Source: Escherichia phage kaaroe. From it: a stretch of DNA of 64,000 nucleotides. The first letter of the stretch is position 1; each line of letters starts with the position of its first letter. This document shows, in pieces, positions 46,299 through 64,000 of this stretch. The stretch is from sequence record MN850574.1; one strand, written 5' to 3'. The notes under the pieces were generated by a model. The model had not been told where the DNA came from, made no database searches, and was given only the letters and a program-made list of their open reading frames with translations. The translations under genes were made by a program, and so were the position numbers.

Positions 46299-46309
46299 GT
46301 TTTTATGTG

Positions 46310-46338
46310 TTGACAACCATAAACGACTATAGCATAAT
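46310..46338 (+). promoter_or_regulatory. early promoter module TTGACA-17-CATAAT with conserved CATCGAAACGAAACAC leader
   Basis: hexamers read directly. Confidence 0.7.
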
Positions 46339-46376
46339 GCACACATCGAAACGAAACACACTTAGGAGAATCAAAA

Positions 46377-46754
46377 ATGATGATGATGTTTAAAGATAAA
46401 TTCGAATGTCACTACACCCGTAACTTTGACTTAGTATCCCGCTACTACATTCATAAAGAAACTGGCACGCAAGTAGTTCTTGAATCTCACAGCGAAGTAG
46501 GATTCGATTCAACAAAAGTAGCAATTAGTGCTCGCTTCTGGGATAACGGCAAATTTGCTTATATCGCTTGGAACGACGACGAAAATGTAATTACAGTAGC
46601 TTTCGGTGATGACTACTACACTAAAAAGACTTTCGATAGCAAGCCATCAAATGAATACCTGAAAGCGTATGTGCAGCACATGTTCCAACGTGTTCTGACC
46701 GGAATGGAAATCAATGTCATGAAAGACATTGTAGACGAAGTAAAATATTCTTAA
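46377..46754 (+). CDS. hypothetical early protein
   Basis: 125 aa, RBS AGGAGAATCAAAA. Confidence 0.6.
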   Translation: MMMMFKDKFECHYTRNFDLVSRYYIHKETGTQVVLESHSEVGFDSTKVAISARFWDNGKFAYIAWNDDENVITVAFGDDYYTKKTFDSKPSNEYLKAYVQHMFQRVLTGMEINVMKDIVDEVKYS

Positions 46755-46760
46755 AAATAG

Positions 46761-46789
46761 TTGACAACATGAAACGGGGGTAGTAAGAT
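46761..46789 (+). promoter_or_regulatory. early promoter module TTGACA-17-TAAGAT with hairpin in spacer
   Basis: GGGGGTA...TACCCC inverted repeat spans spacer and -10. Confidence 0.6.
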
Positions 46790-46819
46790 ACCCCACAAAC
46801 AAACGAAAGGAGAATCAAA

Positions 46820-46978
46820 ATGAAATTCATCGGTAAAACTTTTATGTTCGTAGCTGGTACTCTGTTTACTGCAACTCTGTTAGCTGGTGGCTTAGATATC
46901 TTTACTGCCTTTGAAACTTTCGGGTATACTGTAGCATCGGGTGCTCTCTTCGGATTGGGTTTAGCGATTAGCAAATAA
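46820..46978 (+). CDS. small membrane protein (52 aa)
   Basis: RBS AAAGGAGAATCAAA, hydrophobic. Confidence 0.45.
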   Translation: MKFIGKTFMFVAGTLFTATLLAGGLDIFTAFETFGYTVASGALFGLGLAISK

Positions 46979-46987
46979 GGTGATAAT

Positions 46988-47191
46988 ATGGAATTGGATA
47001 TGGTTAAAGCAAAATTTATGGGTAAGGATAAGAGCGGTAAAACATTTGTTATTAATAGAACATTGTTTCGCTCTGACCTTAAGTGGGTAACACAACAATT
47101 TGCGGAAGTCAACGAGGCAGTTGTGACATGCTTCGTTGATGATAAAAAAGTTTTTGAAATTGATCGTCGTGGGGTGTCTAATGATCACTAA
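46988..47191 (+). CDS. hypothetical protein
   Basis: 67 aa. Confidence 0.4.
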   Translation: MELDMVKAKFMGKDKSGKTFVINRTLFRSDLKWVTQQFAEVNEAVVTCFVDDKKVFEIDRRGVSNDH

Positions 47192-47378
47192 ACTGTTTAG
47201 CAATACTTTGTTTCTGATTGCATTTGTTTTCTTTCTGTGTCTGATGATCGGTGTTGTTACAGTAGGTAGCTATTCCGGTGTTACCTTAGATGATTTTTGC
47301 AAACTTGTTATGGTCTCGTTTATACCTAGTATTCTGCTCGCTTTATGTGGTGCTTTCAGATGGCTCTGTGATCTATGA
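47181..47378 (+). CDS. small membrane protein
   Basis: start moved to internal ATG; hydrophobic. Confidence 0.4.
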   Translation: MITKLFSNTLFLIAFVFFLCLMIGVVTVGSYSGVTLDDFCKLVMVSFIPSILLALCGAFRWLCDL

Positions 47379-47466
47379 ATGAACAGGAACGAATGATGTT
47401 GATAGGTGGACCGGAGTTCACTAAATTTGATGCAATTCTTATTGCGTTGGGTTTTCTTATGATCTG

Positions 47467-47706
47467 TTGTATGGTGGCGCTATGAGTAGCATAAAATATT
47501 TTGCTTTCTTGTGTTTTATGATGTTCTTTACATTCTTAGCATGTGTTTTCTTTACATGGCTTGCTCATGTTGATAATGCAACCGGACCGTTTTACTTCTT
47601 CTGTGTGTTGTCTGTGTTGACTGGTGCTCTTGTTACGTGGATGATTCGAGATTGTTACGTAATGTATAAGTTTGAAAAGACTCGACCGAAATGGGGCAAA
47701 CGATGA
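47467..47706 (+). CDS. small membrane protein
   Basis: 79 aa hydrophobic, overlapping start/stop with neighbours. Confidence 0.45.
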   Translation: MYGGAMSSIKYFAFLCFMMFFTFLACVFFTWLAHVDNATGPFYFFCVLSVLTGALVTWMIRDCYVMYKFEKTRPKWGKR

Positions 47707-61739: not shown

Positions 61740-62030
61740 ATGACCACTGAACAATTAATCAAGCATATCCGAAACATCATCTGGGATCTGTCTGGTGATA
61801 AAGAGGAACAAGCTGAACGCATTTTGGCTAAACTCTATAAGCGCCGTGACCGTGGATTATCAGCAAAGAAAGTAGAAACTTTCAAAGAGTTATCTTTCAT
61901 CGAAGCTAAAAAGGATGGATTAATTTATCAGTTGACAGATGGTTATTGGTGCTATGATAATACTCGCTATGACACCGCGACCGATGCATTAAAAGCATGT
62001 AATGACCATCTTCGCAAAACTACAATTTGA
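61740..62030 (+). CDS. hypothetical protein
   Basis: 96 aa. Confidence 0.5.
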   Translation: MTTEQLIKHIRNIIWDLSGDKEEQAERILAKLYKRRDRGLSAKKVETFKELSFIEAKKDGLIYQLTDGYWCYDNTRYDTATDALKACNDHLRKTTI

Positions 62031-62040
62031 GGATTATATT

Positions 62041-62238
62041 ATGAAGGTTAAAACATTGGCTGATATGGATGAGATCGAGACTCAAGTACATGCGGCGCTA
62101 GTCGGTTATGAGTTCGGGCGATTCCTTAATAAGTTCCATGATTATAAATGCTTAAATTGTGGTGCTCATAACGTAATTGGTGCTTGCTGTATTAATCCTG
62201 TTATAGTACCATATAAAAGAAATGAAACAGAAGAGTGA
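62041..62238 (+). CDS. small Cys-containing protein
   Basis: start at internal ATG with GAGGAT RBS. Confidence 0.45.
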   Translation: MKVKTLADMDEIETQVHAALVGYEFGRFLNKFHDYKCLNCGAHNVIGACCINPVIVPYKRNETEE

Positions 62239-62248
62239 GGAATATAGA

Positions 62249-62683
62249 ATGAAAAAGTTGATGGCGACCTTTCATGATATGCGAGATCTACCAGGTTTAG
62301 CACATGTCGATTTTCCTGTTACTATGGAAGTGTCGGAATATGACGGTTATCATGATATTCTGTTTATTAAAAACACTGAGTTTATCCGCTTAGGCGCTAA
62401 ACCTGCTGTACTATACCCAGAAGGAAACCGGACAGCGGTCAGAAAAACAAATTCTGTTAAATTGGCATTTAGTTCAGATGTTGGCTTGGAACCCGCTTTC
62501 GGATATACTCCGGTCGAGATCACAAAATCGAATACTTCTTTCGTGAAAGTTGGAGAGAAAACGCATATTTCAACTATGCCGAACGGTGCACAATATCTAT
62601 GGTCCGATTTCTGCCAGCGTTATGAGCGTTTATCATGGGCTACCCGCTTATGGTGTGTTGAGTATAAGGAGATCACAAAATGA
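62249..62683 (+). CDS. hypothetical protein
   Basis: 144 aa, start at internal ATG with GAGGAA RBS. Confidence 0.5.
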   Translation: MKKLMATFHDMRDLPGLAHVDFPVTMEVSEYDGYHDILFIKNTEFIRLGAKPAVLYPEGNRTAVRKTNSVKLAFSSDVGLEPAFGYTPVEITKSNTSFVKVGEKTHISTMPNGAQYLWSDFCQRYERLSWATRLWCVEYKEITK

Positions 62684-62934
62684 TCACCGGATATATTCCA
62701 TATTCAACGACAAAACACATTATCGGATTCGAAGACATAGAAAAGTCTTGCTTTCCTCTCAAGGTTGAAGTAGACTTTATTACAGCGAACGGATGGGCTT
62801 ACGTCACTGTTTCAGAAATGAAGCGCGTAGGGTGGGAAAACTGCATACACCTACCGCATCTTATCCTAGATGTTCGCGCTGGTGAAATTGATATTGCTGG
62901 AAAGATCTATGGAGACAATGTAAATGAAAATTGA
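62680..62934 (+). CDS. hypothetical protein
   Basis: 84 aa, ATGA overlap. Confidence 0.45.
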   Translation: MITGYIPYSTTKHIIGFEDIEKSCFPLKVEVDFITANGWAYVTVSEMKRVGWENCIHLPHLILDVRAGEIDIAGKIYGDNVNEN

Positions 62935-63121
62935 AATTATTGATGACGGTGGATTTTCTTTCATGAATGGCGTTAAACTTCCTATCATCGTGGAAGGTCG
63001 TCGTTATGGGCTTGATTATCTTGTAGAAACGCAGGAACTACAAAAAGCTGGCGTACCAATTAAAGGTTATTTTCCTGAATATGAATGGTGTTTTCGTGCA
63101 AATGAAGCCTGGGCGGTATAA
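62924..63121 (+). CDS. small protein, paralog family 2
   Basis: MKIEIIDDGGFSFMNGVKLPIIVEGR. Confidence 0.5.
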   Translation: MKIEIIDDGGFSFMNGVKLPIIVEGRRYGLDYLVETQELQKAGVPIKGYFPEYEWCFRANEAWAV

Positions 63122-63139
63122 CTAATTGAGGATTATATT

Positions 63140-63397
63140 ATGAAGATTGAAATTATTGACCGTGCTGGGTATACTTTCATGGAAAAAGTTAAACTTCCTA
63201 TCATTGTTGAAGGTCGCCCATTATGTCAAGGATTCATGATAAAGACCAGAGAACTACGAAATGCGGGTGTTCCTGTTGAATCATGTTTCAGTGATGATTA
63301 TGAATGGTGTTTCAGTGGTTTACGTGCACATAAAGTAAAAGAAGCACGAAAAGCATCATGGTTTGCTAGCTTTAATAACTGGTTGAGGAAACTGTGA
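63140..63397 (+). CDS. small protein, paralog family 2
   Basis: MKIEIIDRAGYTFMEKVKLPIIVEGR, about half identical to previous ORF. Confidence 0.5.
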   Translation: MKIEIIDRAGYTFMEKVKLPIIVEGRPLCQGFMIKTRELRNAGVPVESCFSDDYEWCFSGLRAHKVKEARKASWFASFNNWLRKL

Positions 63398-63735
63398 TGT
63401 GTGAAATGAAAAAGTATATGATTCTAAGTGATTCAGGATACACCTTCTTACAAGGTATTGATAGTGACTCGCGTCCTATTGTATATGGAAAAGAACATCC
63501 GACCATTCCTGAGATCATTCTTGTTACGACAACATCACTTCGTAGAGTGTCAGAAAGTCCATACCTACAAAACGTAAAGCAGGACCGAGAATGGGCTTTC
63601 GAGTTAGGTAAAGACCTTGTTGAATGGGTAAACTGTGAAGACAAGAACCAACGAAATCATGAAGGGAAGATTTCACGAATTGTACTGAGAGGAAAACTTG
63701 ATGAAATCAAAAACAGGATTCTACAATCAATGTAA
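63397..63735 (+). CDS. hypothetical protein
   Basis: 112 aa, ATG after GAGGAA. Confidence 0.45.
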   Translation: MCEMKKYMILSDSGYTFLQGIDSDSRPIVYGKEHPTIPEIILVTTTSLRRVSESPYLQNVKQDREWAFELGKDLVEWVNCEDKNQRNHEGKISRIVLRGKLDEIKNRILQSM

Positions 63736-63955
63736 CAGGGTATTCATTGTCCTGCTGGATTCGGAAAACTATCCAGAACTCTCTAAAACGCGTTTTCCGT
63801 GCGTTGTTGAAGCACGCAAGGCATATGCACCAGATAAACAGTTTATAGTGTTAGCGAGCGAAATAGAGCGGTTAGGGGCGATTCCTAAACATGATGAATA
63901 TGTGTTTTGTAAGGCGTTCTCTGTGCCTCATTTTGGTGTAGAGTTAATTCACTAA
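63698..63955 (+). CDS. hypothetical protein
   Basis: 85 aa. Confidence 0.4.
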   Translation: MMKSKTGFYNQCNRVFIVLLDSENYPELSKTRFPCVVEARKAYAPDKQFIVLASEIERLGAIPKHDEYVFCKAFSVPHFGVELIH

Positions 63956-63972
63956 AATCATAAAAAAAGTTG

Positions 63973-64000
63973 TTGACAGGGGATCGGTGATCCCCTATAC
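63973..64000 (+). promoter_or_regulatory. early promoter module (TTGACA plus spacer hairpin GGGGATC-GGT-GATCCCC), truncated by window end
   Basis: read directly. Confidence 0.5.

Follow-up and report, generated by a model that had tools for sequence, protein, structure and literature searches.

The early promoter modules of Escherichia phage kaaroe are very probably PeSL cassettes of the RB49 type

Introduction

Promoter-early stem-loop (PeSL) cassettes of RB49-type phages are the closest described counterpart of ten early promoter modules in Escherichia phage kaaroe, the subject of this study, which lie in a 64,000-nucleotide stretch of sequence record MN850574.1 (the window throughout). Nolan et al. 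2006 (PMC1524935) listed 51 predicted early promoters of RB49 and state that the RB49 consensus is in line with early-transcript 5′ ends mapped by Desplats et al. 2002. PeSLs were described in RB49 and phi1 at 51-52 copies per genome, in five subclasses defined by the position of the stem-loop, and were enriched in hyperplastic regions ahead of ORFans (Arbiol 2010, PMC2839356). In lacZ reporters one PeSL proved to be a very strong promoter and one stem-loop cut read-through as strongly as rrnB T1; the in vivo promoter and terminator assays covered PeSL193/192, 206/205 and 211/210 of RB49 and phi1 (PMC2839356). PeSL mini-circles were also detected by PCR in both phages, with crossovers between the -10 and the Shine-Dalgarno (SD) sequence (PMC2839356). 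The concept was later widened to other T4-like phages (Comeau et al. 2014, PMC4122927). Such elements, their promoter function and the shuffling model are already known in kind, having been published between 2002 and 2014 for the same genus.

Likenesses to other systems are more partial. T4 early promoters are likewise used by unmodified host RNA polymerase and carry an upstream A-rich, UP-like tract, but their consensus is GTTTAC as opposed to GTTGACA in the modules. The PeSL-like elements of the T-even internal-protein (IP) locus have also been proposed to mediate local gene shuffling; however, their stem-loops are weaker, AT-rich and without poly-G/poly-C stems, and the authors considered them analogues, not homologues (PMC2839356). 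In lambdoid morons (Hendrix et al. 2000) and integron cassettes, as in the modules, one or more genes travel with their own expression signals, insulated from their neighbours. Integron cassettes differ in using attC sites and a dedicated integrase and in usually having no promoter of their own, whereas no recombinase is known for the modules.

Results

Ten modules belong to one repeat family

An initial annotation of the window, made from the letters alone, had placed ten early promoter modules between positions 46300 and 64000. All ten were recovered on the + strand, co-oriented with the genes, each directly 5′ of a small gene and 57-75 bp 5′ of an ATG (Table 1; modules are cited by the first position of the -35). 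They form a single repeat family far above chance. Across the whole window, TTGACA-N15-19-CATAAT was matched 6 times against 0.13 expected, with 5 of the 6 inside 46300-64000, and the relaxed form TTGACA-N15-19-NATAAT was matched 14 times against 0.41. The ribosome binding site (RBS) string AGGAGAATCAAAATG, allowing up to 3 mismatches, gave 15 matches against 3.4 expected, 9 of them at modules. A profile built from nine modules and run against the 64-kb window (E<0.02) returned those nine, the truncated module at 63973, one site each at 33149 (- strand) and 7285 (+ strand), and nothing else; 10 of these 12 family matches fall in the 17.7-kb early-gene block. The longest exact runs shared between module pairs are 9-32 nt, compared with a background mean of 6.6 and a maximum of 11. 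The 32-nt run, common to modules 48302 and 49264, extends across the end of the spacer, the -10, the discriminator and the leader. Similarity among the units covers 60-100 bp at ~75-85% identity, for a unit length of 57-75 bp from -35 to ATG, or 80-98 bp including the upstream tract.

Alignment of the modules revealed a common layout: an A/T tract, (G/A)TG-TTGACA, a 17-bp spacer, the -10, (A/G)CAC(A/C)C, CATCGAAAC... and finally AGGAG(A/T)AT(C/T)AAA-ATG. Upstream, the AT-rich tract reads AAAAAGT(T/A)G in some modules and in others is supplied by the T-run of a preceding terminator, as in TTTTT(A/G)(G/T)GTG. The -35 TTGACA is present in 10/10 modules and the spacer is 17 bp in 9/10, being 16 bp at 61683. 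The common promoter proposed in the initial annotation, TTGACA-17-CATAAT, was too narrow: its -35 holds throughout, but the exact string was found at only five sites (46310, 48302, 49264, 59265 and 60507), the remaining -10 hexamers being those given in Table 1. At 46761 and 54621 the -10 fits TATAAT at 4/6 positions, and at the other eight sites at 5-6/6. The conserved initial transcribed sequence, CATCGAAACGAAACAC, likewise held only in part, being exact at three sites and 2 mismatches away at a fourth; the rest retain only CATCGA/CATC or CATACC. The shared RBS was borne out, with GGAG(A/T)AT(C/T)AAA standing 1-3 nt before the ATG in 9/9 complete modules and the same block present in orthologues of 63973. 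The genes led by the modules, homologues of RB49 ORF125, 124, 117, 116, 113, 095, 084, 080, 078 and 070, are all hypothetical (ORF, open reading frame).

The family member at 33149-33075 (- strand) lies beyond the early block, amid virion genes, and leads an operon of three genes, each encoding a product that starts with MAR...; an approximate conversion of coordinates makes it probably RB49 Pe:73830. Further strong TTGACA-16/17-TATAAT/CATAAT promoters occur at 6714, 7285 and 8963 (+ strand). Another recurring signal for translation start, GAGGATTATATTATG, has 5 matches where 0 are expected: it lies at 50258-50272, 62029-62043 and 63128-63142 and, with one mismatch, at 42936 and 56491. It is used by operon-internal genes and also closes some modules in relatives just past the window end.

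The modules correspond to PeSLs of the genus Krischvirus

Sequence comparison identifies the window as part of an RB49-like coliphage of the genus Krischvirus. Searches with bases 46200-52200 and 42000-64000 matched ~58 RB49-like (Krischvirus) genomes at 95-98.6% identity, mostly over the full length. The closest genomes to the window are FL38, FL37, Delraymugoa, RB49 and GEC-3S, with identities of 97-98.6% for FL38, FL37, RB49 and GEC-3S; relative to the RB49, phi1 and GEC-3S records, the window is in the opposite orientation. The stretch 46300-64000 is a block of small early genes bounded by gene 57B and ORF070, and contains dmd, endolysin, vs.8, vs.6, nrdC.11, regB, vs, tk, rI and gp38.

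Every module (10/10) coincides with an RB49 early promoter of Nolan et al. 2006 (PMC1524935), as mapped via the RB49 locus L002, and the GEC-3S record carries promoter, -35 and -10 features at 10/10 orthologous sites. GEC-3S has one additional feature of this kind at window position 55467. This site was considered as an eleventh module and rejected: the longest run that it shares with the family is <=9 nt, indicating a generic promoter.

The published PeSL anatomy is that of the modules, with an AT-rich tract, a TTGACA-N17-TATAAT-like promoter, a G(n)-loop-C(n) at variable position, and an SD followed by ATG. Both stand 5′ of small ORFans in the hyperplastic region, and in both some junctions of gain or loss lie inside the element. 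Genus and loci are the same and nothing essential is different (PMC2839356, PMC4122927). The likeness to PeSLs drawn in the initial annotation is therefore upheld, and the ten modules are very probably the PeSL cassettes already described for RB49-type phages. With the RB49 early promoter class they share a G at -36, a G at -33 (GTTGAC), a T or C at -12 and a C-rich stretch from -3 to -1, but that class was treated as promoters only and not as composite, recombining cassettes (PMC1524935). What is new relative to the PeSL papers amounts to modest additions, namely the phiS junction and 14 genomes without the gp38 cassette, the exclusivity of hairpin and terminator, and the RegB/S1-like RBS block, each presented below.

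Krischvirus genomes and Krischvirus-like metagenomic contigs carry the specific module sequence; more distant T4-like contigs that have a homologue of the thymidine kinase gene (tk) lack it. Searching IMG/VR via tk recovered one close genome only (ECD7), the other loci belonging to distant T4-like phages without the module family. An exact-pattern scan of IMG/VR (promoter plus discriminator) recovered Krischvirus-like contigs and two unrelated contigs with single matches. In these unrelated viral contigs (L029 1736-1780 and L031 1145-1194, one contig being 369 kb) the match is TTGACA-17-CATAATACACACATCGCAC, equivalent to the -10 plus discriminator/start region of the modules; it may represent a wider promoter type, or chance. 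An Rfam scan of 46000-64000 found nothing near any gathering score.

Stem-loops accompany nine of the ten modules

Stem-loops are associated with 9/10 modules, four as upstream terminators, two within the spacer (48571 and 63973) and three across the -10 (46761, 54621 and 49264). The initial annotation had several modules preceded by a terminator hairpin, and this proved correct for 46310, 48302, 59265 and 61683. It had also listed four spacer hairpins, two of which (48571 and 63973) are indeed in the spacer; those at 46761 and 54621 straddle the -10, and the hairpin at 49264, the most stable of all, had been missed. Predicted folding energies are -10.6 kcal/mol at 46761 (z -2.3), -13.6 at 48571 (z -4.5), -16.1 at 49264 (z -4.8), -14.0 at 54621 (z -3.2) and, via the GEC-3S orthologue, -10.1 at 63973; five hairpins have z <= -2.3. 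The hairpin of module 60507 is marginal (-8.3 kcal/mol, z -1.4), and folding of 46310, 48302, 59265 and 61683 gave no internal hairpin. Canonical terminators with a T-run lie at 46273, 48248, 59226 and 61645, directly ahead of these four hairpin-less modules. An internal hairpin and an upstream terminator are thus mutually exclusive among the ten (0/5 vs 4/5, Fisher p = 0.048), and modules with an internal hairpin have the stop codon of the preceding gene 0-17 nt from their -35.

Twelve relatives were aligned to window 41800-64000 (GEC-3S, two RB49 records, phi1, LF73P4, JK32, FL37, Whisky, JSE, ECD7, G2248 and phiS). Folding of the 68 distinct promoter variants in the window and these relatives was bimodal, at <= -10 or >= -4 kcal/mol, with the 60507 type intermediate. 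Paralogous modules have different stems that retain complementarity (GGGGAGG, GGGGATC, GGGGGTA, GGGAGTA, GGGTGTAT, GCGGTTAT), with three compensatory pairs in one register and one in the other; stem positions pair in 98-100% of cases, compared with 27-78% when the partner is slid. Orthologous hairpins are uninformative on covariation because their stems barely vary among relatives. A terminator scan of the + strand returned the four upstream hairpins as intrinsic terminators and listed none of the embedded ones. The tails that follow the embedded hairpins (CACAAACA, UACAAUAC, AUCGAAAC, AUCGAAAC and UAUACUAC) contain no U-run, and the embedded hairpins are therefore not canonical intrinsic terminators.

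A further structured stretch separates module 48302 from the final gene of the 46761 operon; here, ~180 nt without an ORF (48101-48280) fold as four or five hairpins ending in a terminator (minimum free energy -66 kcal/mol, z -3.9). At 96-100% conservation across the twelve relatives it varies too little for covariation, and it scores below every Rfam gathering score. It could be a structured 3′ untranslated region or a small RNA.

Some rearrangements among relatives have an edge inside a module

Comparison of the twelve relatives gave 12 distinct structural events, a small count delimited by hand, of which 3 have an edge inside a module, where modules make up 4.3% of the sequence (binomial p = 0.013). 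In phiS, homology passes from the promoter and leader of module 60507 straight into the gene behind module 61683, the switch falling within AGGAGAATCAA. The junction, unique to phiS, removes window 60577-61739 (ORF080 and gp38) and leaves a chimeric module. LF73P4 and G2248 have another module, with a hairpin in its spacer (CGGGGAGAAATCCCCG), in place of everything between the ORF080 stop codon and the -10 of module 61683, and their homology to the window picks up again in the leader CATACCAAC; this arrangement is found end to end in 14 of ~58 Krischvirus records. Module 61683 is consequently the right-hand breakpoint of both rearrangements of the gp38 cassette. Also in LF73P4, the start codon behind the 63973 orthologue is where homology stops, and over the next ~5 kb only module copies match the window. 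Chimeric modules occur in this stretch, one of them having the promoter and hairpin of 48571 (47/47 nt identical) before a different leader and gene.

The first two of these events concern gp38, a tail-fibre adhesin gene that in the window and in RB49-type genomes lies inside the early hyperplastic region. Where the window has the gp38 cassette, the 14 records have the single hairpin-in-spacer module. One of the 14, FL15, encodes a 50%-identical gp38 (L024 1480-2262) at the canonical position, after a long ORF taken as gene 37 and 5′ of the holin gene. The window gp38 has an identical counterpart in MIZ6 (100%) and, compared over the full length, shares 88-91% identity with gp38 of phages such as AV109, TB37 and TB004; its match to RB49 gp38 is restricted to residues 1-115.

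An indel 5′ of module 59265 (phi1 ORF084.1; a 2-kb ORF in JK32 and G2248) was also considered as module-associated and rejected as an intragenic deletion. The segment 59012-59225 keeps the 5′ and 3′ stubs of a 714-amino-acid ORF that is intact in G2248 and JK32, which indicates an internal gene deletion, and phi1 ORF084.1 corresponds to the last 42 residues of that ORF at 98% identity (L022 18379-20523; L003 18900-19028). Judged from sequence, this phi1 ORF, a unique phi1 ORFan in the literature, is a deletion remnant and not a shuffled cassette.

Other events are listed in Table 1. The insertion points at 52238-52262, 53424-53451 and 43761-43781 are recurrent among relatives. ORF080 (60577-60798), ORF074 (62924-63121) and ORF073 (63140-63397) encode small paralogous proteins, with identities of 53% and 31%.

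The module RBS resembles a RegB/S1 target

The RegB/S1 target consensus in T4-type phages is the single-stranded 11-mer GGAGRAYARAA, usually located at the SD of early genes (Durand 2006, PMC1702504). The module RBS block GGAGAAUCAAA matches this consensus at 10/11 positions. The exact 11-mer GGAGAATCAAA occurs 7 times in the window, always within modules, and the variants GGAGTATCAAA and GGAGTATTAAA match fewer consensus positions than it does. In the RB49 annotation, GGAG is present in the RBS of 10/11 module-led genes vs 14/48 internal genes (p = 2.5e-4). The regB gene itself lies in the region, with its own GGATAATAAAA site at 55011, and the SD of RB49 regB (GGAU) is reported in the literature to be cleaved in vivo. 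As in the described RegB/S1 sites (PMC1702504), the module block consists of 11 nt, GGAG plus an A-rich part, over an early-gene SD, and the site of regB is present in the window as GGAUAAUAAAA.

Table 1. Positions of the modules and of other features in the window; ORF numbers are those of the RB49 homologues.
Feature	Position	Strand	Stem-loop or content	-35	-10	Leader	RBS block	ATG (gene led)	Counterpart or remark
Module 1	46273..46379	+	terminator hairpin 46273-46293 + T-run; no internal hairpin	46310-46315	CATAAT 46333-46338	CATCGAAACGAAACAC 46344-46359	GGAGAATCAAA 46365-46375	46377 (ORF125)	RB49 Pe:60694; GEC-3S promoter
Module 2	46755..46822	+	stem-loop 46777-46794, -10 in loop	46761	TAAGAT 46784-46789		GGAGAATCAAA 46809	46820 (ORF124)	RB49 Pe:60244; upstream stop codon 6 nt before -35
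Module 3	48248..48379	+	terminator 48248-48269 + T-run	48302	CATAAT 48325-48330	exact, 48336-48351	GGAGAATCAAA 48364	48377 (ORF117)	RB49 Pe:58699
Module 4	48563..48631	+	hairpin GGGGAGG-ATAAC-TCCCC 48576-48594, wholly in spacer	48571	TACAAT 48594-48599		GGAGAATCAAA 48618	48629 (ORF116)	RB49 Pe:58430
Module 5	49256..49337	+	8-bp stem GGGTGTAT/ATACACCC (49277-49284 with 49291-49298), straddles -10	49264	CATAAT 49287-49292	exact, 49298-49313	GGAGTATCAAA	49335 (ORF113)	RB49 Pe:57746
Module 6	54612..54683	+	stem GGGGGTA/TACCCCC (54636-54642 with 54649-54655), -10 in loop	54621	TAATAT		GGAGTATTAAA	54681 (ORF095, directly 5′ of regB)	RB49 Pe:52389; upstream stop TAG abuts -35
Module 7	59226..59325	+	terminator 59226-59251 + T-run	59265	CATAAT 59288-59293	short, CATCGACAACAA	GGAGAATCAAA 59312	59323 (ORF084)	RB49 Pe:47746
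Module 8	60490..60579	+	marginal hairpin; without upstream terminator	60507	CATAAT 60530-60535	CATCGAAACGAGATAC	GGAGAATCAAA 60565	60577 (ORF080)	RB49 Pe:46502
Module 9	61645..61742	+	terminator 61645-61666 after gp38	61683 (16-bp spacer)	TATAAT 61705-61710	CATACCAAC	GGAGAATCAAA 61728	61740 (ORF078)	RB49 Pe:45336, listed there '1 bp del'
Module 10	63956..64000	+	A-tract; hairpin GGGGATC-GGT-GATCCCC 63979-63995 in spacer	63973-63978	TATAC[T] from 63996, cut by window end; orthologue TATACT	CATCAAAACGAAACAC in relatives	GGAGAATCAAA in relatives	in relatives (ORF070)	RB49 Pe:43045
gp38 adhesin cassette	60799..61716	+	terminator 60817-60832, RBS, gp38 60853-61638, terminator 61645-61666, promoter half of module 9						
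Extra promoter-like site	55467..55532	+	TTGACT-17-TATTAT						5′ of vs.1; GEC-3S promoter annotation
Insertion	52238-52262 and 53424-53451		HNH-AP2 and HNH-NUMOD4 endonuclease genes, 525-644 bp, in relatives						empty in window
Insertion	43761-43781		1.0-1.2-kb ORF with CapR-like domain in relatives						empty in window
Replacements or deletions	49857-50254; 51199-52262; 56951-57144; 62227-62492								
Tandem paralogue recombination	breakpoints 62991/63093-63140								several relatives lost one copy
Internal gene deletion (2 kb)	stubs 59012-59225		714-amino-acid ORF						

Discussion

We are highly confident that module-led early transcription, together with insulation and occasional cassette exchange, is the best explanation of the repeat family. 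Each unit would combine three parts. A strong early promoter of the host sigma-70 type would be formed by the A/T tract, G-TTGACA, the 17-bp spacer and (C/T)AxxAT. As established for RB49 by published reporter assays and 5′-end mapping, host RNA polymerase fires such promoters right after infection, each starting a short operon of small early genes. An insulating stem-loop is predicted from the anatomy to reduce transcription running on from the preceding operon. It would take the form of a canonical terminator with its T-run upstream of the promoter or, in modules whose -35 follows the end of the preceding gene by 0-17 nt, of an embedded G(n)-loop-C(n) hairpin placed either within the spacer or over the -10. 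The suggestion in the initial annotation that the hairpins are regulatory would be compatible with the published role in termination or attenuation. Finally, a short A/C-rich leader and the strong GGAG(A/T)AT(C/T)AAA, 1-3 nt before the ATG, would ensure that the first gene is translated efficiently. With 60-100 bp in common, and exact runs up to 32 nt, the units could cross over with one another, and homologous recombination of the phage may occasionally exploit this, deleting, inserting or swapping a cassette and leaving a working chimeric promoter and RBS.

Several points weigh against this reading. Support from promoter and terminator activity would come by analogy from experiments in RB49 and phi1, mostly on other PeSL copies. 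The embedded hairpins, as in ...ACCCCCAUCGAAAC, are without a U-run, and the compensatory changes in their stems come from very few independent lineages and lend modest support. Rearrangements that touch a module are in the minority within a small, hand-delimited set: 9/12 are unrelated to modules, and among the events at gene junctions only, 3/6 are at modules (p ~0.05-0.08), a marginal enrichment. The initial annotation had called the modules recombination hot spots and had named the lack of any association with indel boundaries as what would refute this. An association was found, in the three events with an edge in a module, but the term is overstated given the other causes of the remaining nine. 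On the sequence evidence, the modules do serve as crossover points, yet the variation in 46300-64000 comes mainly from other sources.

These last figures would also be in keeping with modules that were ordinary early promoters, alike through independent selection for one optimal promoter, leader and RBS and not substrates of recombination, with indel edges falling there by coincidence or merely because an indel of whole genes has to end between genes. The hexamers, the SD and the ATG spacing are all under functional constraint, most indels of the region are away from modules, and the enrichment relative to other gene junctions is only marginal. We nevertheless regard such convergence as very unlikely. 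The similarity covers positions without known constraint, as in the 32-nt run of 48302 and 49264; in phiS, two module halves are joined precisely at a point inside the RBS block that both share; and LF73P4 has the 48571 promoter and hairpin, identical at 47/47 nt, before a different leader and gene. Moreover, mini-circles with module-module junctions were reported, from PCR, for RB49 and phi1 (PMC2839356).

The role of the embedded hairpins could also be read differently. Their position exactly in the spacer or across the -10, where access of RNA polymerase would be controlled, and the lack of a U-tract after them would suit G/C-rich inverted repeats that act as DNA, either as cruciforms that modulate the promoter or as sites for a sequence-specific phage protein (repressor or recombinase), and not as RNA terminators. 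Stems of 6-8 bp with 3-6-nt loops are, however, short for stable cruciform extrusion, and cruciforms, which the initial annotation had offered as an option, are unlikely. The stems also differ among modules while keeping their complementarity, which argues for structure rather than a sequence-specific site, and the hairpins are found where a separate terminator is absent. Arbiol et al. speculate on a protein binding GGGG...CCCC, but in the same work one PeSL stem-loop reduced lacZ read-through like rrnB T1 (PMC2839356), and overall a function at the DNA level appears highly improbable. Alternatively, the embedded hairpins could be RNA 3′-end or stability elements, in which case polymerase would not be stopped; instead, processing of read-through mRNA, for example through RegB cleavage at the following GGAG or through RNase E, would be followed by trimming as far as the hairpin, which would shield the upstream mRNA. 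The missing U-tract is again consistent with this, as are the RegB-like site 20-45 nt 3′ of every hairpin and the presence of regB in the region. Against it, the sole published reporter test favours termination or attenuation, though a drop in lacZ cannot separate the two (PMC2839356). We consider this explanation unlikely, and an insulating, terminator-like role of the hairpins is preferred.

A further function may reside in the RBS block. It is possible, though somewhat doubtful, that GGAGAAUCAAA doubles as a RegB/S1 endonuclease site, making the module a four-function cassette in which cleavage would provide a timed inactivation of early mRNAs. Such a role would account for the conservation of the block well past the SD core and for a GGAG that is near-universal among module-led genes but not among internal ones. 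Position 8 weighs against it, being C in the modules where A is strongly preferred in RegB/S1 sites (PMC1702504). RegB is mentioned in neither PeSL paper (PMC2839356, PMC4122927). If true, a gene shuffled behind a module would gain at once immediate-early transcription, insulation, efficient translation and programmed mRNA inactivation once RegB accumulates.

Taken together, the modules offer a textbook-style case of accessory early genes kept fluid in large lytic phages by conserved regulatory linkers, which let genes be gained, lost or swapped without disturbing their neighbours. One such boundary adjoins gp38, and since this tail-fibre adhesin determines host range, the linkers bear on host change in RB49-like phages that are candidates for therapy.

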